Source: an uncultured virus (IMG/VR IMGVR_UViG_3300044675_004257) (lineage: Duplodnaviria > Heunggongvirae > Uroviricota > Caudoviricetes). Taken from it: a DNA stretch of 20,000 bases. Below are positions 11,902-19,176 of this stretch, piece after piece; position 1 is the first letter of the stretch; the number at the start of each line of letters is the position of its first letter. The notes beneath the pieces are model-generated. The model ran no database searches. It was given only the letters and a program-made list of their open reading frames with translations, and had not been told where the DNA came from. Where the stretch lies: IMG/VR virus record IMGVR_UViG_3300044675_004257, positions 57,660-77,659 of that record. One strand, given 5' to 3'. Made by a program: the position numbers and the translations under genes.

Positions 11902-13353
11902 ATGATTTTTGAAATTGAAGCCACACGATTTGAAGATGGTGATAAAAGAGTTTTTCACTATGACAATATGGCTAATGTGTTGAAAGATTCTGATGGTAAT
12001 GTGTTTGAATATCCGGCAGACCAAATGCCACAACATTCTTTGAAACCTTACAAACCATTTGACAAGAATCGTCCACTAAAAAAATCAAAATTAATCAGCC
12101 ATTTGAAGATTCAGATGGGGTTGAGTTGTAACTATTCTTGTGATTATTGTTCACAGAAGTTTGTTGAACGCCAACCAGAAACCTCTAAAAAAGATATTGA
12201 TGTTTTTATGGAGAAATTAGATAATCTTCATTTTGATGAAGATGTTGGTTTAAGAGTTGAATTTTGGGGTGGTGAACCACTTGTTTATTGGAAAACAATG
12301 AAGCCATTGGCTGAGGCCATTGCAGAAAAATTTGACAGTTGGAAAACCAAACCACAATTCAGTGTTATCACCAATGGTTCGATACTAACTGATGAAATTA
12401 TTGATTGGTTAATGATGATGGATTTTGCTGTGTCAATTTCACATGATGGACCGGGTCAATTTGTACGTGGTCCTGATCCTTTTGATGATCCTGAACAAAA
12501 AGAACGTATTCTAGGATTCTATCGTATGATGACTAGACTTGGTAAAAGTTTTAGTTTTAATTCAATGTTGAACTCTAAAAACCAAAGTCGTAAAGAAATC
12601 TATGATTGGTTCGTAAATCTCACTGGTGATGAAAATGTTATCTTGGGTGAAGGTTCAATGGTTGATGCCTATGACGAAGAAGGTATATCATATTCACTAA
12701 TCACAAAACAAGAACATTTCGATTTTAGGCAACGTGCCTTTGGTGAGTTGTATGGTACAGAAGGCCAAATTGGTTTTAGAGCACAATTAGGTAAAATTGA
12801 TGATTTTGTAACTGGTGTATTGACTCATAGGGAATCTAAATATTTGGGTCAAAAGTGTGGTATGGATGATGAACACACTTTGTCTGTCGATTTACGTGGT
12901 AACATTATGACCTGCCAGAATGTGAGTTCTTTAGAAATTTCCAAGAACGGTGAATCACACCATGGTGGAAACTTAGAAGATTATGCAAAAGTTGAATTGA
13001 AGTCTGTTACGCATTGGTCTAACCGAAAAGAATGTCCAGAGTGTCCAGTGTTACATGTCTGTAAAGGTGCGTGTATGTTCTTGGATGAAAAGTTTTGGGA
13101 TGTTTCTTGTGCTAATGCATACTCTGATAACGTGGCATTATTTGCGGCAGGATTCACAGTTATGACGGGTGGTTATATTCCGACACTAATTAAGAGTGAT
13201 ACTTTACCTCTTGAACGACAAGATATCTTTGGTAATATATTCACACACGAAGAAGATAAACAGAAAAAAATCATACCAATCAAGGTAATTAAAGAGATTA
13301 TTGGTGAAGTGGATGAAGTTTTGGTTTATGGTAAATCTCGTTTAGAAAACTAA
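11902..13353 (+). CDS. Radical SAM enzyme with C-terminal SPASM domain (peptide-maturase / anSME-like)
   Basis: CNYSCDYC (CxxxCxxC), FWGGEPL, ITNGS, SISHDG; SPASM-type Cys set CGM...CQN...CPECPVLHVCKGAC...C; GAGG RBS. Confidence 0.9.
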   Translation: MIFEIEATRFEDGDKRVFHYDNMANVLKDSDGNVFEYPADQMPQHSLKPYKPFDKNRPLKKSKLISHLKIQMGLSCNYSCDYCSQKFVERQPETSKKDIDVFMEKLDNLHFDEDVGLRVEFWGGEPLVYWKTMKPLAEAIAEKFDSWKTKPQFSVITNGSILTDEIIDWLMMMDFAVSISHDGPGQFVRGPDPFDDPEQKERILGFYRMMTRLGKSFSFNSMLNSKNQSRKEIYDWFVNLTGDENVILGEGSMVDAYDEEGISYSLITKQEHFDFRQRAFGELYGTEGQIGFRAQLGKIDDFVTGVLTHRESKYLGQKCGMDDEHTLSVDLRGNIMTCQNVSSLEISKNGESHHGGNLEDYAKVELKSVTHWSNRKECPECPVLHVCKGACMFLDEKFWDVSCANAYSDNVALFAAGFTVMTGGYIPTLIKSDTLPLERQDIFGNIFTHEEDKQKKIIPIKVIKEIIGEVDEVLVYGKSRLEN

Positions 13354-13381: not shown

Positions 13382-14272
13382 ATGACACTACCAGCATCAG
13401 GTCAACCCATTGGAGTATCAAACGTTAATGCAGCAGTTGGAAGGTCACCCACAACAAATGCAAGTTTGACTTTTTTAAATGGTTACATAAAACCAGTTAT
13501 AAGACCGGGTACATCAAATTTAGGTTCTTTTAGTGGCCTAAGATTTTATAGACAAAACACTGCCGGCAATTGTAATAATGTAAACAATAAAGCATGGAAT
13601 TGTAATTGTGGTAATATTCAATGTAATTCAACAAACAACTGCACAGCAATTAACTGTGCAAACTGTGACACACAATTTTGGTTACAAACTGGAGACTGTC
13701 AATTATCAACCACACCAGTGTACAACTGCACGAACAACCAAAATTGTTTCAGCTATAATTGTAATTGTTCGAAGATTATTTGTACAAAACTATTTGACCT
13801 CGGTTTAATGAAGAAAAATATCTTTGAGGCAGACCAAGCATTTGGTGAACGTTTGCAAAAAACCAATCCGGATATCTACAATGGTTATCGTGCATGGGCG
13901 GAAATTGTTGTTGACTGGATGGATGGCAAAGGTCCTAAGATGATGCCTTGGATGTCCGATGATGAATTTAGTGCAGCTGCAAAGAAATGGTCCATCACTT
14001 GGGCTCACGATATTGCAACACCTTGGGCTGAAGAAATGGCATACTTAATGGGTGAAAAGGAAACAGGCAGTCTGACAGGTAAAATGATGTTTGTGTTTGG
14101 TACACCAATCTGCAAGGTTATTGGTGTGTGGCAACGTTGGTTTGGACCAAGTAAAAAAGAACCTGGTTTCTTAAAAGGTGCTGGCCTTGTTGTAATTTTT
14201 GTAATGTTCAAGTTGGTTGCAGAACTAGGTCGTTTCATTGAGAAATTCATACCAAGTAAAAAGGTTGCGTGA
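13382..14272 (+). CDS. Asn/Cys-rich tripartite protein, candidate substrate of the neighbouring enzymes (precursor or virion-fibre-like protein)
   Basis: N-terminal MTLPASG...SNVN segment, residues 63-129 with 12 Cys (10 as NC) and 19 Asn, then a C-terminal domain starting KIICT with a hydrophobic tail. Confidence 0.8.
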   Translation: MTLPASGQPIGVSNVNAAVGRSPTTNASLTFLNGYIKPVIRPGTSNLGSFSGLRFYRQNTAGNCNNVNNKAWNCNCGNIQCNSTNNCTAINCANCDTQFWLQTGDCQLSTTPVYNCTNNQNCFSYNCNCSKIICTKLFDLGLMKKNIFEADQAFGERLQKTNPDIYNGYRAWAEIVVDWMDGKGPKMMPWMSDDEFSAAAKKWSITWAHDIATPWAEEMAYLMGEKETGSLTGKMMFVFGTPICKVIGVWQRWFGPSKKEPGFLKGAGLVVIFVMFKLVAELGRFIEKFIPSKKVA

Positions 14273-14562
14273 TGCCAGTATATTCTTCAACTAGACCGGT
14301 TAAAATATTGATTAACAATTTGGATTATACAGATGAACATCTGACACATTTTTTTAACACATATAGTTTAAATGCCTTCGATTTAATGACACAACAAAAA
14401 AAAGAACGTGTTTTTGAAATGTTAACAAAACATGAAAATTTACTAACAAAATTTTATGGTAATGCTTTACTCAAAAGTGGAGTTTTTGTTCCAAAATTAG
14501 CTAGAGATAATGTTGATAATGTATATGTTACAGAATATAAAAAGTGGTTGGAAAAACAATGA
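14272..14562 (+). CDS. Small hypothetical protein (paralog A)
   Basis: TGATG coupling; local similarity to the next ORF. Confidence 0.65.
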   Translation: MPVYSSTRPVKILINNLDYTDEHLTHFFNTYSLNAFDLMTQQKKERVFEMLTKHENLLTKFYGNALLKSGVFVPKLARDNVDNVYVTEYKKWLEKQ

Positions 14563-14945
14563 AGAATTATTCACACACTTTACTACCAACAATAAAAACA
14601 TATGATAATGAAAATATTTTATTTAATCAATCATTAATACCAAATTTTGTTAAAAAAACATTCTTCGAAAGAGTTGTTGCTTTAAGTGAAGAAGAAAGAG
14701 ATGAATTTTTCCGCATGAGTTATGAGTATGAGGATGTATTATTTGAAATGTTTGACGGCCAGATTGAGAATTTGACGGAAGCTGGTTGGACAACCGCAAC
14801 CGATACAATCTTTAGAAATCCAACAGAAGAATATGAAAATTATGCATCTTTACCGAAAGATGCTGATTTGACAGATGAGGAACATCAGTTGAAATTGGAA
14901 CACCTAAGACAATTTAAAGAATGGTTTGAAAAACAAAACTATTGA
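14559..14945 (+). CDS. Small acidic hypothetical protein (paralog B)
   Basis: ATGA coupling; ends FKEWFEKQ versus YKKWLEKQ in paralog A. Confidence 0.65.
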   Translation: MKNYSHTLLPTIKTYDNENILFNQSLIPNFVKKTFFERVVALSEEERDEFFRMSYEYEDVLFEMFDGQIENLTEAGWTTATDTIFRNPTEEYENYASLPKDADLTDEEHQLKLEHLRQFKEWFEKQNY

Positions 14946-14954
14946 TTTTTTATT

Positions 14955-15662
14955 ATGACACAAAATATTATGACAAGAGAAGACAGAGAAAAATACCATT
15001 GGTATCAAAATGCACAGAACATGTTTTGGCAAAGTCCAATTTGGGAAGTACAAACACGTTTTGATGAAGAATTTAATGAAACTCTGTTAGATGAAATTTA
15101 TGGTATCGGCAAAGATATCGTATTGGGTAAAGACAAAGACCCAAACAACAGTATATGGGACTACAGTAGACCCAACTTAGATATACTTAAACAAGAAATT
15201 ATAGACATTGTAACCAAGAAAATTGTGCAAAATATTCCACAACTCAGAATGTTAAATATTCGTGGTTGTGAACACTTCATGGGTTGGGTCAATGTGCGTG
15301 AACCAGGAGAACGCTTAGAGGTGCATGGACACACCGAATCTGCTATCGCAGCAACGTATTACATAAAGGCTAAAGAAGGTTGTGGTGACCTTGTGGCGTT
15401 TGATTCTGCACAAGCAATTGATTGGTTAAATAATACTCTAAGTAACACACCAAAATTGCGAGAACGTAGGTTTAAACCAGTTGAAGGTAGATTGATATTT
15501 TTTCCATCATATGTTTTGCATGGCGTTAATGAAAATAAATCTGATGATTTACGCATTTCATTGTCAACCGACCTAAGAAAAGTTGTAGACAAAAATGCAC
15601 AGAATACGGTAATTTTAAAATCGTGGGCTGGCCGCATGGCAAAAATTAGAGAATGGAAATAA
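14955..15662 (+). CDS. Putative 2OG-Fe(II) oxygenase (TIGR02466-like, HxH type)
   Basis: WVNV...EVHGH...YY...GDL...PVEGRLIFFPSYVLHGV..N...RISLS. Confidence 0.85.
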   Translation: MTQNIMTREDREKYHWYQNAQNMFWQSPIWEVQTRFDEEFNETLLDEIYGIGKDIVLGKDKDPNNSIWDYSRPNLDILKQEIIDIVTKKIVQNIPQLRMLNIRGCEHFMGWVNVREPGERLEVHGHTESAIAATYYIKAKEGCGDLVAFDSAQAIDWLNNTLSNTPKLRERRFKPVEGRLIFFPSYVLHGVNENKSDDLRISLSTDLRKVVDKNAQNTVILKSWAGRMAKIREWK

Positions 15663-16192
15663 TGTTTACAAAACTGGAAACAAATTTTGAAAAACCATTA
15701 TATGCAGTTACCGACCCACTAAAAAATTTCAAACATGAAGGTAAAGGTATCGACTATAAAAAGATATGGTCACCTGAGGCTGACAAAATATATGGTGTGA
15801 TACCAAAAAGGTATTGGCAGGACTTTCACTTGACAGTTATGACAATTGATTGTATAATCCCACCACACACAGATACTGAAATTATCACCTCTATAAATTT
15901 CTATATGCAAACCGAAGGTTGCACAACAACTTTTTATAAACCGAAGGTGGAGATTCCAAAAACTGTACAGGTTGAGAATCAAACCAATGGACATATATAT
16001 TTTGAAGAAGATTTAATTGAAGTTGGTAGTTTTGTTGCTAAAGATTATGATATTTGGTTACTTGATGTAAGTCAAATACATGGCGTTAAGGGTAAATTTA
16101 ATTTACGTAAAGCCATTACCTTAGGAACTTTTGTTCATAAGTATCAGGACGTACTAGAAATGTTAAAGGAAACCAATAATGTCGTTTGTTAA
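15662..16192 (+). CDS. Putative Fe(II)/2OG dioxygenase (DSBH fold), paralog 1
   Basis: IPPHTD (HxD), SINFY, LLDVSQIHGV (distal His), LRKAI (Arg); TAATG coupling. Confidence 0.7.
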   Translation: MFTKLETNFEKPLYAVTDPLKNFKHEGKGIDYKKIWSPEADKIYGVIPKRYWQDFHLTVMTIDCIIPPHTDTEIITSINFYMQTEGCTTTFYKPKVEIPKTVQVENQTNGHIYFEEDLIEVGSFVAKDYDIWLLDVSQIHGVKGKFNLRKAITLGTFVHKYQDVLEMLKETNNVVC

Positions 16193-16850
16193 ATTAAAAC
16201 ATACATATGAATATATGCCACACACCATTATACCACAAGGTAAGGCTGATTCATTTGCTGGAAAATATGGACTAGGTGTAAGACACAGTACAATTTGGAC
16301 ACCAGAACCTGAAAAAGAAGTGTTGTATAAAGTTATACCTGAAAGGTATTGGAAAGATTTTCAAGTAACAAGAATGTCTATTAATAGTTTGTTGTTACCA
16401 CACGTTGATAATGATTTTATAACAACAATCAATTTTTATTATGACCCACAGAATTACAGGACAGTTTTTTTCAAACCAAAACCAGGAGCAAATTCTTGGA
16501 AGACAGAAGAAGATAGACACCATGGTGTTGATGAGGGAACAATTATAGACCAAAATGTGAATGTTGAGGAACTAAAAACCAGAGTTAAAGAATTTGTATC
16601 GGAGAAACAAAATATGCCGACATGTGAAGAAATAACATATGTTGATGCGGTATATACTTTCGATGATGTTTATGAAATTGGATCTTTTATTGCTCAACCT
16701 AGCGAAGCATACCTGTTAGATGTGAGAGTACCACATAATGTTGAACCTTTGGGTGGTGAAGCAAATCTTAGGAAAGCTTTTGCACTTAGGACCAAATTGT
16801 ATGATTATGGCCAAGTATATGAAATGTTGCAGGAAACTGGAAATTTATAA
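16179..16850 (+). CDS. Putative Fe(II)/2OG dioxygenase (DSBH fold), paralog 2
   Basis: LLPHVD, TINFY, LLDVRVPHNV, LRKAF; shares IPxRYWxDF and EMLxET with the upstream gene. Confidence 0.7.
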   Translation: MSFVKLKHTYEYMPHTIIPQGKADSFAGKYGLGVRHSTIWTPEPEKEVLYKVIPERYWKDFQVTRMSINSLLLPHVDNDFITTINFYYDPQNYRTVFFKPKPGANSWKTEEDRHHGVDEGTIIDQNVNVEELKTRVKEFVSEKQNMPTCEEITYVDAVYTFDDVYEIGSFIAQPSEAYLLDVRVPHNVEPLGGEANLRKAFALRTKLYDYGQVYEMLQETGNL

Positions 16851-16860
16851 AGGATAACAA

Positions 16861-17655
16861 ATGTTTTTTGAAAAATTAGACTACACAGTAAATATTGAGA
16901 AGTTGAAACAAGAAGTAAGGGATAGCGTTTTTACTTTGGGTGACCAAGTTATTCAAGGTGAAGAATATGAAACTCCAAAATACAATGGTTTTGGTGGTTG
17001 GAGTATTCTATGCAAAGAAGCCACATGGACTGGTGGTTGGGAAGCTATTCAGTTGGAAAAAGGTCAATCACTAGAATCATTTTTACCGACAGAAGAATTG
17101 ATTTACAAAGCATACAAACATTTTAATGTATCTCATGGTTTGGAACATGACAAACCAACGGAAGCTTATGTTGGCGAAATTAAGAAAGTTTTGGACGATA
17201 TACGTGAAATGGGATTTTATCCAACCAGAGCAAGAGTTACTTGTTTGAAAGCAAATTCAAAAAGTTTGGTACACAGAGATGCTGAAGAAAAAGAATATAT
17301 GGCTCGTATTCACATTCCACTATTCACAAATAAAAAATGTGTACACATTTGTCAAGGTAAAAATTTACACATGCCTGCTGATGGTGGCGTTTGGATTCTT
17401 TGGGTGAATCAATGGCACCAAATTAGAAATGATTCCGATGAAGATAGATACCATATCATTATGGATGCTTACGACACCAAAAAGGTAACAAAACATTTTA
17501 AATATGAAGGTGAGTTTGAACAAATGTTAAAATTTGTTGGTAGTATGAGAGAAAAGATTGATAGTGTAGAATTGACAGAAGAAGATATAGACTTCTTTGA
17601 AGCTATCAGACAAAAATATGTAACTAAAAAAATTAGAGATTTTGAAATTTATTAA
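16861..17655 (+). CDS. Aspartyl/asparaginyl beta-hydroxylase-like Fe(II)/2OG oxygenase
   Basis: RARV..L......VHRD...ARIHIPLFTN...HMPADG.VW....WHQIRN.S.EDRYHII; AAGGA RBS. Confidence 0.75.
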   Translation: MFFEKLDYTVNIEKLKQEVRDSVFTLGDQVIQGEEYETPKYNGFGGWSILCKEATWTGGWEAIQLEKGQSLESFLPTEELIYKAYKHFNVSHGLEHDKPTEAYVGEIKKVLDDIREMGFYPTRARVTCLKANSKSLVHRDAEEKEYMARIHIPLFTNKKCVHICQGKNLHMPADGGVWILWVNQWHQIRNDSDEDRYHIIMDAYDTKKVTKHFKYEGEFEQMLKFVGSMREKIDSVELTEEDIDFFEAIRQKYVTKKIRDFEIY

Positions 17656-17658
17656 ATT

Positions 17659-19176
17659 ATGACAGATATACACGGTATCGTTTTTACCGGTATGGAACGA
17701 ACTAGAACAATTAGTCGACCAGCTGGTGCAGCAAGATTGAGGACAGTTTTAGACCAACATGGTTATAACATGGAAGTTATTGATTATTTTGGCAACTTCA
17801 CGGATGAAGAAATTGAAACAATCTGTGCTAGATTTATTGGACCAAAAACACTGTTTGTTGGCGTCAGTATTACCTTCATCTATGCATTTGATAAGGTGAA
17901 TCACCTATTCAATCATATTAAAGAAAAATATCCACACGTAAAGACTTTAATTGGCGGCAATGAGACACCAATTAGTGGTATAGATTTAACTAAGGTTGAT
18001 AGAATTTTTTGGGGATATGCCGAAGAAGCGGTATTACACTATTTAAAATTCCTGACAAAAAAACGATTGGATGATTTAAAGTGGGTTCCTTATAGAGAAA
18101 CTTTTTCTATCAATGCCGAAATGGTGTACAAGAATGATGATACTGATTTATCCATAAAATGGTTGGAGAGCGACTTAATCAAAAACAATTTCTTGCCTAT
18201 TGAAATTAGTAGGGGTTGCATTTTCAGATGCAGGTTCTGTGCCTTTCCATTGTTGGGTAAAAAGAAGAACGATTACATTCGTCACGTAGATAATTTGGCT
18301 GCCGAATTGCGTAGAAACTATGAGATGTTTGGTGTAAACAATTATTGGTTTAATGATGATACGTTTAATGATAACGTGGTTAAATTAGATTATGTTGCTG
18401 AAGCAATTGCAAAGAGTGGTGTTAAGATTACATACACAGCGTTCTTACGTGCAGATTTGATTGAACGTTTTCCAGAAACTATACCCATGTTAGCGGACAC
18501 TGGTTTGGTTGCTGCAACATTTGGTTTAGAATCACTGCATCCAGAGGCCAAGAAGGCCATTGGTAAAGGCCTAGATAATGAAAGACAGTTTGAAGCAATT
18601 AGACAGTTAAAGAAATATAAACCAATTTACACATATACTGGTATGATTTGTGGGTTACCTGGAGAACCAATCTCTAGTGTGTATAAAAGTCAGCAATTAT
18701 TGTTGGACCAAAACTTTGAAGTATTTGATAATTGGGATTGGTGGCCTTTGTTGATTAGAAAAGGATCAGTCAGTCGTTTAAGTGAATTTGAAAAAGAATA
18801 TGAAAAATGGGGTTACAGTGAAATGTTACCTGGAGAATTTAAAGTTCCCACAGGTGATGATGATTTTAGATATGCACAACCTGATGAAGGAACAATGATT
18901 TGGAAAAACAAATATACAAACTGGTATACTGCAAGGCGTGTTGCTGATTCATTGAATAAAGAAACAGAACAACATCGAATCAAAGCTGGTAAATCAATTT
19001 ACGGTAATGCTGATAAAGGTGTCAGTATCAACCATGATGTATTTGAACTGGTTGGTATGGGAGTTGATATTAAAGATATCATTGATGGAACATTTGACAA
19101 AACTTTTTTGAATAAAAAAATCGAAGAAGCAGACCAAACTATCCTTGAATATAAAAACTTAAAGTTAGGATTATAA
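17659..19176 (+). CDS. Cobalamin (B12)-binding radical SAM enzyme (class B methyltransferase-like)
   Basis: N-terminal B12-binding-like region (VGVSITF, LIGG, GYAE), EISRGCIFRCRFC, DDTFN, FGLES, ICGLPGE. Confidence 0.85.
   Translation: MTDIHGIVFTGMERTRTISRPAGAARLRTVLDQHGYNMEVIDYFGNFTDEEIETICARFIGPKTLFVGVSITFIYAFDKVNHLFNHIKEKYPHVKTLIGGNETPISGIDLTKVDRIFWGYAEEAVLHYLKFLTKKRLDDLKWVPYRETFSINAEMVYKNDDTDLSIKWLESDLIKNNFLPIEISRGCIFRCRFCAFPLLGKKKNDYIRHVDNLAAELRRNYEMFGVNNYWFNDDTFNDNVVKLDYVAEAIAKSGVKITYTAFLRADLIERFPETIPMLADTGLVAATFGLESLHPEAKKAIGKGLDNERQFEAIRQLKKYKPIYTYTGMICGLPGEPISSVYKSQQLLLDQNFEVFDNWDWWPLLIRKGSVSRLSEFEKEYEKWGYSEMLPGEFKVPTGDDDFRYAQPDEGTMIWKNKYTNWYTARRVADSLNKETEQHRIKAGKSIYGNADKGVSINHDVFELVGMGVDIKDIIDGTFDKTFLNKKIEEADQTILEYKNLKLGL

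Follow-up and report, generated by a model that had tools for sequence, protein, structure and literature searches.

The stretch of DNA analysed here comes from an uncultured Caudoviricetes virus (20,000 nucleotides, positions 57,660 to 77,659 of record IMGVR_UViG_3300044675_004257; the whole of it is called the window below). It raises the question of what a phage does with a protein in which one cysteine after another is preceded by asparagine. The gene concerned lies at 13382..14272 in the list of open reading frames (ORFs), on the + strand like all the features of the window described here, and encodes 296 amino acids (aa). The protein falls into three parts, these being an N-terminal part of variable length (residues 1-62, 13382..13567, from the alignment of 106 homologs described below), an Asn-Cys core of 67 residues (residues 63-129, 13568..13768, from composition and alignment), and an all-helical C-terminal domain beginning at the motif K-I-I-C (residues 131-296, 13772..14272, from AlphaFold2 (AF2) and alignment). 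The framework of the core is conserved, and across lineages Asn-Cys sequences of this kind are found with the gene for a radical SAM (S-adenosylmethionine) enzyme. The explanation that we favour, and regard as probable, is that this enzyme modifies the cysteines of the N-C pairs, and that the core is part of a module of fibre-tip type.

An earlier note on this DNA, the sequence-only reading, had described a core with 12 Cys and 19 Asn, in which ten Cys follow Asn and the other two follow Gln and Asp, and which contains three aromatic-Asn-Cys units. All of this is correct: the residues preceding the 12 Cys of residues 63-129 are Asn ten times, Gln once and Asp once, and the aromatic units WNC, YNC and YNC are located at residues 72, 114 and 125. 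When the core is shuffled, the mean number of N-C pairs is 3.4 (standard deviation 1.4), and the observed number of ten is reached or exceeded in only 5 of 200,000 shuffles; the pairing is therefore real and not an effect of composition.

The protein has no match in the Pfam, PHROG or NCBIfam libraries, and a profile search of PDB sequences gave only one chance-level hit, to a cytochrome c555 construct (E 2.5e-4, residues 25-74). A protein search found 697 relatives at E<=1e-3, none of them with a name, and a cluster look-up of the homologs held at NCBI returned 'hypothetical protein' throughout. Structure prediction with AF2 for the whole protein is confident for the helical domain alone (predicted local distance difference test, pLDDT, 76-88, with helices over residues 133-289). 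A Foldseek search of the model against the PDB gave nothing at E<=0.001, and against viral models the only matches were uncharacterised phage proteins that have the helical domain in common.

For the core alignment, the window protein was combined with 107 listed relatives of 280-340 aa, from which P0116 and P0119 were dropped since they match in the helical domain only, leaving 106 rows including the window. These homologs are mutually related, and the conservation counts are therefore not independent samples. Within the core, Asn precedes 1192 of 1408 Cys (85%). No sequence lacks Cys at C64, C95, C116 or C127 (106/106), six more positions are Cys in 90-105/106, and the junction to the helical domain (K131, I132, I133, C134) is unchanged in 106/106. 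The spacings are nearly constant: five residues between C81 and C87 (103/106), seven between C87 and C95 (100/106), five between C116 and C122 (104/106) and four between C122 and C127 (102/106). The sole loop of the core with variable spacing is C74-C81, which ranges from 5 to 23 residues. There are 55-91 residues ahead of the first Cys, and the median identity to the window protein rises from 45% in the N-terminal part to 64% in the core and 80% in the helical domain. Ahead of the helical domain each homolog has 10 to 17 Cys, and the total is odd in 50/106, which suits a strict all-disulfide framework poorly.

The sequence-only reading had suggested aligning homologous cores to see whether N-C and aromatic-N-C are conserved while the spacers vary. 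The N-C pairing is conserved, and the spacers are mostly constant apart from the one loop. Of the aromatic units, that at Y114 is kept in 104/106 homologs (it is invariant just in the 45-sequence alignment A1) and that at Y125 in 82/106, but the position of W72 is Trp in 1/106 and Cys in 83/106. The same reading had compared the core to epidermal growth factor (EGF) domains with hydroxylated Asn. The consensus for Asp/Asn hydroxylation of EGF type is C-x-[DN]-x4-[FY]-x-C-x-C, and it is matched neither in the window protein nor in any homolog (0/106). The core as an EGF-like hydroxylation domain was rejected on this count.

The gene directly upstream of the Asn-Cys gene (11902..13353) encodes a radical SAM/SPASM protein of 483 aa, the putative modifying enzyme, identified from its Pfam and NCBIfam matches and its Cys motifs. 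The Pfam matches are Radical_SAM (PF04055, 1.1e-09) and also Fer4_12. The CxxxCxxC motif of the radical SAM cluster is present as C76/C80/C83 and is invariant in 6/6 aligned enzymes from four lineages. The seven-Cys SPASM motif has the form C-x9-15-G-x4-C, gap, C-x2-C-x5-C-x3-C, gap, C. The enzyme has C319-x13-G333-x4-C338, then C378-x2-C381-x5-C387-x3-C391, then C403, all invariant in the same six enzymes, and the Pfam SPASM model is not among its matches at E<=0.01. In NCBIfam the enzyme best matches maturases that modify Cys in peptides: PapB (1.4e-22), geopeptide, CcpM, QhpD-type (5.8e-18) and SCIFF.

The association of this enzyme with the Asn-Cys gene was followed in viral and bacterial-genome loci fetched from databases, which are labelled L followed by three digits, and some of which are identical or nearly so (for example L204-206, L212/213 and L222/223). 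In the clade of the window, 28 viral loci have a full-length or near-full-length homolog, and 27 of these include upstream DNA; the enzyme is upstream in 27/27, with 70-100% identity, and a gene intervenes only once. Conversely, when the enzyme was used to fetch loci (63-100% identity), 75/75 had an NC-rich ORF after it at a distance of no more than ~1.5 kb. In 70 of these it is the next ORF and has the K-I-I-C junction, in L095 the junction is a variant one, and in four it comes after one or two inserted ORFs. The two sets have contigs in common and the phages of this clade are all syntenic, and the association within the clade is thus not in itself proof of a functional link. As a separate observation, in L132 (1823-3291), L133 (9425-10863) and L134 (9446-10881) two tandem ORFs of ~240 aa lie between the radical SAM and NC genes, and have the histidine-box motifs typical of membrane fatty-acid desaturases.

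More informative are the distant relatives of the enzyme, 36-63% identical to that of the window, in other phages and in bacterial contigs. Here the characteristic feature is a run of the form (Asn-Cys)n, called a ladder below, which was found by simple patterns; loci were counted where they have at least 4 kb of upstream DNA. Among 28 viral loci fetched by the enzymes of L035 and of Achromobacter phage JWF (their own enzymes being 52-63% identical to the former or 47-79% to the latter), 26 have one to three ladder-ending + strand ORFs 1.4-6 kb upstream, the misses being L197 and L218; collapsing near-identical loci leaves ~17 distinct cases. The ladder is followed by 0-4 residues, except for ~175 in the fibres of L220 and L221, which are capped by a Hint domain, and 166 in the L193 paralog with the helical domain. 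Among bacterial-genome loci, a ladder ORF is upstream in 52/53 (the miss being L245), compared with 11/27 of those with shorter upstream DNA. Most of these loci come from freshwater Burkholderiales such as Limnohabitans and Polynucleobacter, and they are presumably prophages or binned phage contigs. As a control, 42 enzyme-free loci (479 kb, with 1981 ORFs of 60 aa or more in the six frames) contained no + strand ladder ORF.

Individual loci show what kind of protein carries the ladder. In L035, three small proteins are paralogs of one another and have an N-terminus like that of tail fibres. Two of them (101 aa) end in the (N-C)n ladder; in the third the ladder is followed by the helical domain, and a 42% identical enzyme is encoded 3.3 kb downstream. 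Two examples come from isolated phages. In phage JWF, the tail-fibre-like gp028 has an N-C/D-C ladder directly before an annotated Hint domain, and an enzyme 44% identical to that of the window is encoded two genes later. In Ralstonia phage RSP15, a short N-C/Q-C motif forms the end of the side tail fibre, and a 43.5% identical enzyme is encoded three genes downstream. Of seven ladder proteins tested, five (L196, L200, L207, L209 and L194) match tail-fibre families in PHROG and two proteins of ~95 aa have no match; the small ladder proteins of this size adjoin tail-fibre genes. The suggestion of the sequence-only reading that the N-C pairs are programmed sites, and not part of a plain Cys-rich domain, gains considerably from this strong gene association with a radical SAM enzyme across lineages, and loses its aromatic, EGF and short-peptide details.

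The ladders themselves vary. In two Rhodospirillales-type contigs from metagenome-assembled genomes (MAGs), L294 (5175-6035) and L295 (3-530), S-Y-C / T-Y-C repeats precede the N-C/D-C end, and in L194 (5729-6568) the ladder ends in five Cys in a row. In L235 (5190-6332, a Burkholderiaceae MAG) and L237 (5709-7268, Burkholderia paludis MSh1) the ladder is followed by C-F-P..., a Hint-like junction as in JWF.

The first 130 residues of the window protein also occur on their own. The Polynucleobacter contig L228 encodes a protein of 131 aa with 48% identity to window residues 1-116 (E 2e-26); a ladder forms its end, and the helical domain is missing. Its gene follows those for a tail assembly protein, for central tail fibre J and for a protein like the distal subunit of long tail fibres, in that order, and precedes the gene for the enzyme (56% identity). 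L227, from Paraburkholderia, has the same arrangement with a 135-aa protein (43% identity over residues 1-129, E 3e-20), and L280 has a third stand-alone copy. Window residues 1-62 are homologous to the N-termini of the L228 and L227 proteins. The three copies indicate that residues 1-130 are an autonomous module, to which the window clade has added the helical domain. The Asn-Cys object is a folded protein module of ~130 residues rather than the short core of a ribosomally synthesised and post-translationally modified peptide (RiPP).

The stand-alone genes in L227 and L228 are inside tail-fibre operons, in the location where phages keep fibre accessory or adhesin genes. The T-even gp38 and lambda Tfa-type accessory genes sit downstream of the distal tail-fibre gene, and the stand-alone homologs similarly come directly after a gene for a distal-subunit-like protein. 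The Asn-Cys framework also bears one hypervariable loop, as adhesins do. The likeness does not extend to sequence or fold, and in the window the gene is not part of a tail operon. Given that the core travels with its own radical SAM enzyme, and that its stand-alone relatives come just after tail-fibre genes, it is probable that phages chemically modify a part used for host recognition.

We therefore propose the following scheme, which is conditional throughout. Phages would encode a module of ~130 residues, made up of the N-terminal part and the Asn-Cys core, together with a dedicated radical SAM/SPASM enzyme. At its simplest, the module would finish in an (Asn-Cys)n ladder and would be either a separate small protein or the C-terminus of a tail-fibre protein; in the window version it would be fused to the helical C-terminal domain, with the enzyme gene directly upstream. 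The enzyme would bind the core in the cytoplasm while it is unfolded or partly folded, and would use a SAM-derived radical and its auxiliary Fe-S clusters. The thiols of the N-C cysteines would be converted to covalent cross-links, most plausibly thioethers to a carbon of a nearby residue, the acceptor probably being Asn. This would yield a rigid knot with no dependence on disulfides. A 2-oxoglutarate (2OG) oxygenase that recurs beside the enzyme may hydroxylate Asn, and three other oxygenase-like proteins of the window, described below, could do likewise. The finished module would probably be at or near the distal end of the fibre, which contacts the host.

On comparison with known systems, cross-linking through Cys thioethers, possibly with Asn hydroxylation in addition, appears the most plausible chemistry. 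QhpD forms thioethers from Cys to acidic side-chain carbons, and the acceptors of PapB and QhpD are Asp or Glu in C-x3-D-type motifs. The PapB/freyrasin and QhpD/QhpC systems are close to that of the window in that their enzymes are among its top NCBIfam matches; they differ in that their sites are not adjacent N-C pairs, and the window enzyme scores far below the cut-off. PMC9389541 describes the thioethers of PapB, which likewise join Cys to side-chain carbons of acidic residues, and the streptococcal radical SAM enzyme NxxcB, which belongs to a RiPP system and joins the Cys sulfur to the beta-carbon of Asn, Asn being its native acceptor. The residues linked in the NxxcB/NxxcA system (PMC9389541), Asn and Cys, are the two that define the phage core. 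However, NxxcA is a short peptide with one N-x-x-C, whereas the phage core is part of a folded protein, with Asn directly before Cys and at least ten sites. The window enzyme has 45 NCBIfam matches, and the best 25 do not include NxxcB. Finally, CrpC of Methanococcus voltae is a SPASM enzyme that makes thioether (ranthionine) links on a whole Cys-rich protein of 29 kDa, CrpA, and its gene lies beside that of its substrate (PMC13692751), as in the window. CrpC/CrpA (family TIGR04463) is archaeal and cellular, and has other motifs. The thioether proposal therefore draws on three things: the nearest families make thioethers, NxxcB uses Asn, and CrpC cross-links a whole protein.

Several points weigh against this reading. 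Co-occurrence is not proof of an enzyme and its substrate, and we infer that relation, along with the chemistry, the location in the virion and the role of the helical domain, from sequence. The loci are redundant and related, and the window clade is syntenic. The enzyme reaches the NCBIfam cut-off of no named family, with at best 80 bits against 340 (PapB 80.4/340, CcpM 70/500, SCIFF 53.8/425, TIGR04463 50.6/525). It has no RRE or PqqD match in Pfam, and only ~65 conserved residues precede its cluster motif. The window gene is outside the tail module, its neighbours being auxiliary genes and genes of DNA metabolism, for ATPases, a phosphoesterase, an epimerase-like protein, a DenV-like protein and PhoH, and its product matches no tail-fibre family in PHROG. 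The 2OG oxygenase partner is absent from JWF, RSP15 and ten other distant loci. A constant Cys framework with constant spacings would be equally expected of a metal-binding or disulfide domain, and AF2 gives no confident fold for the core (pLDDT <50 over most of it, with low segments at 61-93 and 107-131).

The last two points lead to the strongest alternative, to which we would give perhaps one chance in a handful: the core is unmodified and binds a metal or Fe-S cluster, or forms disulfides after lysis, with the radical SAM enzyme acting on some other target. Constant spacings and invariant Cys are typical of metal or disulfide domains, and AF2 is often not confident for folds that depend on a metal. 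The alternating C-x-C ladders also recall the H-x-H iron sites at the tip of the T4 long fibre. What this alternative leaves unexplained is why the enzyme is found with ladders in 26/28 and 52/53 loci, against 0/42 controls. It also has to accommodate the odd number of Cys in 50/106 homologs, and the fact that the nearest families of the enzyme are Cys-peptide maturases.

A little less likely still, in our judgement, is that the enzyme modifies the core by a different radical reaction, such as conversion of Cys to formylglycine in the manner of anaerobic sulfatase maturases, formation of a C-C cyclophane at the Y-N-C units, or epimerisation. The enzyme does have further NCBIfam matches below cut-off to the anaerobic sulfatase maturase (6e-11) and to the cyclophane-forming YhhB (8.9e-16), AmcB and FxsB, and the JWF enzyme is called an anaerobic sulfatase-maturating enzyme in one record. 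The Y114-N115-C116 unit is also highly conserved, and Y125 largely so, as given above. But these family matches are far below the cut-off, as indeed are the thioether ones, and the aromatic-N-C unit that the sequence-only reading took as a common element is not one. The substrates of triceptide-type enzymes would be expected to have conserved aromatic-x-x motifs in common; here, many ladders of other lineages have no aromatic residue beside N-C, and position 72 is Trp in 1/106 sequences.

That the protein is a classical RiPP precursor, its core being cut out and released as a small bioactive peptide acting on the host or on competitors, seems very improbable: the pairing of a Cys-rich product with a SPASM maturase, and the nearby tailoring oxygenases and B12 radical SAM enzyme, do resemble a RiPP cluster, but library scans found neither a protease nor an exporter in the cluster, conservation extends over the N-terminal part and the framework together, as a single module, and the homologs and ladder proteins are inside tail-fibre operons, many being tail-fibre proteins in PHROG. 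The reading as a classical secreted RiPP was rejected for these reasons.

Modification of the N-C cysteines by the upstream enzyme thus remains the reading that we prefer. No account of phages that pair Asn-Cys ladders with a radical SAM enzyme came up in the literature search, subscription journals and supplements being outside the search. Pelagimyophages have been described as carrying radical SAM cassettes in a host-recognition cluster, and an Asp/Asn beta-hydroxylase is core to them (PMC7029224). New here are the version of the Asn-Cys sequence with a framework of 67 residues, the helical domain fused to it, the homologs that stand alone within tail operons, and the extended cluster of oxygenases and B12 enzyme.

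A wider generalisation is that in many phages the host-contacting tip of the fibre contains an Asn-Cys framework that is cross-linked and oxidised by a radical SAM/SPASM enzyme, often together with a 2OG oxygenase; we put this forward tentatively, as somewhat short of an even chance. If it is true, the phages concerned would range from freshwater myophages to probable prophages of Burkholderiales, and would have an enzymatic means of hardening or tuning the receptor-binding part without disulfides. The window clade would have the most elaborate version, in which the 67-residue framework, with its one hypervariable loop, is fused to a helical domain acting as cap or anchor, and is the target of as many as four oxygenase-like proteins as well as a B12 radical SAM enzyme. 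Cross-linking by radical SAM enzymes has been described for small peptides, but for very few proteins of cells. If phages apply it to fibre-tip modules, the system would add a new layer to the construction and diversification of host-recognition parts, would account for a class of orphan radical SAM and 2OG genes found in large aquatic phages, and would provide a compact, genetically encoded protein staple that is independent of redox conditions.

The helical domain is not described by any library searched, and a look-up in the ESM Atlas gave unnamed viral clusters below 0.9 and nothing else. It occurs behind Gly-rich (Gly_rich_2) and other N-termini in 42 viral loci, and the enzyme is absent from 41 of these, the exception being L035. 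Its carriers include a 616-aa protein beside fibre genes in Synechococcus phage SynMITS9220M01 and an 886-aa DUF4815 protein. The Kyte-Doolittle hydropathy has a peak of 1.98 over residues 262-280, which is the last helix. Ladders elsewhere are C-terminal or followed by Hint, and Hint domains are self-cleaving as a class, which suggests that the helical domain may be a removable cap or an aid to assembly. Given its hydrophobic last helix, it may alternatively be a membrane anchor. More generally, the K-I-I-C domain (13772-14272 in the window; L030-L071) is widespread at the C-terminus of proteins of large phages, where the N-terminus is Gly_rich_2, Pro/Ala-rich, Ig-like or DUF4815, and is present in two copies in L033, L042 and L045.

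Downstream of the Asn-Cys gene is a cluster of putative oxygenases. The first (14955..15662, 235 aa) belongs to the 2OG-FeII_Oxy_5 family (Pfam PF13759, 2e-17; phrog_81), and members of PF13759 adjoin the radical SAM enzyme in 21/33 distant loci, five of which were seeds of the hidden Markov model used. It is followed by o179 and o223 (15653..16850), which are 33% identical to each other and are predicted from AF2 and Foldseek to be paralogous cupin/JmjC-like oxygenases. Residues H72, D74 and H143 are invariant in them, in an H-x-D...H arrangement. The sequence libraries searched gave no name for either. The AF2 model of o179 has a pLDDT of 89, and in Foldseek it comes closest to NO66, MINA53 and YcfD, which are ribosomal protein hydroxylases, and to FIH (E 9e-5 to 1.4e-3, TMq 0.39-0.49). 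Next comes an Asp/Asn beta-hydroxylase-like protein (16861..17655, 264 aa, Pfam PF05118, 1.1e-08), present in 26/26 window-clade loci that reach that far. A PF05118 protein 2.6 kb downstream of a core rich in Cys and Asn is reminiscent of the Asp/Asn beta-hydroxylase that acts on EGF domains, but as noted above the EGF consensus is absent from all 106 family members. For Asn hydroxylation, which the sequence-only reading had listed among the possible modifications, the support is indirect, coming from the recurrent 2OG-FeII_Oxy_5 partner and the oxygenase cluster of the window, and the EGF form of the idea is not upheld. The cluster ends with a B12-binding radical SAM enzyme (17659..19176, 505 aa, Pfam Radical_SAM 4.9e-19 and B12-binding), kept in 23/25 window-clade loci reaching that far. 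Its best NCBIfam matches, all below cut-off, are to families of methyltransferase type, namely P-methyltransferases of PhpK type and lipid or hopanoid methylases.

Two further genes were noted in the distant loci. A conserved protein of ~255 aa is encoded directly after the ladder genes in 11/16 of them (L204, 6584-7348, and ten others; alignment A3). Its only match is a weak one to a pectate-lyase family in PHROG (3.9e-05). Profile comparison found no relation between it and o179/o223 (alignment A4), and searches of PDB sequences with A3 and A4 gave nothing. In L193 (5139-6077), a gene for a solute-binding protein of DctP type (TRAP transporter; Pfam 5.8e-51) lies between the ladder and radical SAM genes.

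It is worth adding that two small ORFs with no family match lie between the Asn-Cys gene and the first oxygenase of the window. The first, o97 (14269..14562), overlaps the stop of the Asn-Cys gene and is present in 24/28 window-clade loci, and the second, o133 (14544..14945), is acidic and overlaps o97. Both diverge fast: outside the closest relatives of the window they are 31-62% identical (31-57% for o97 alone), compared with 80-100% for the flanking and neighbouring genes. The two may be distant paralogs of each other.

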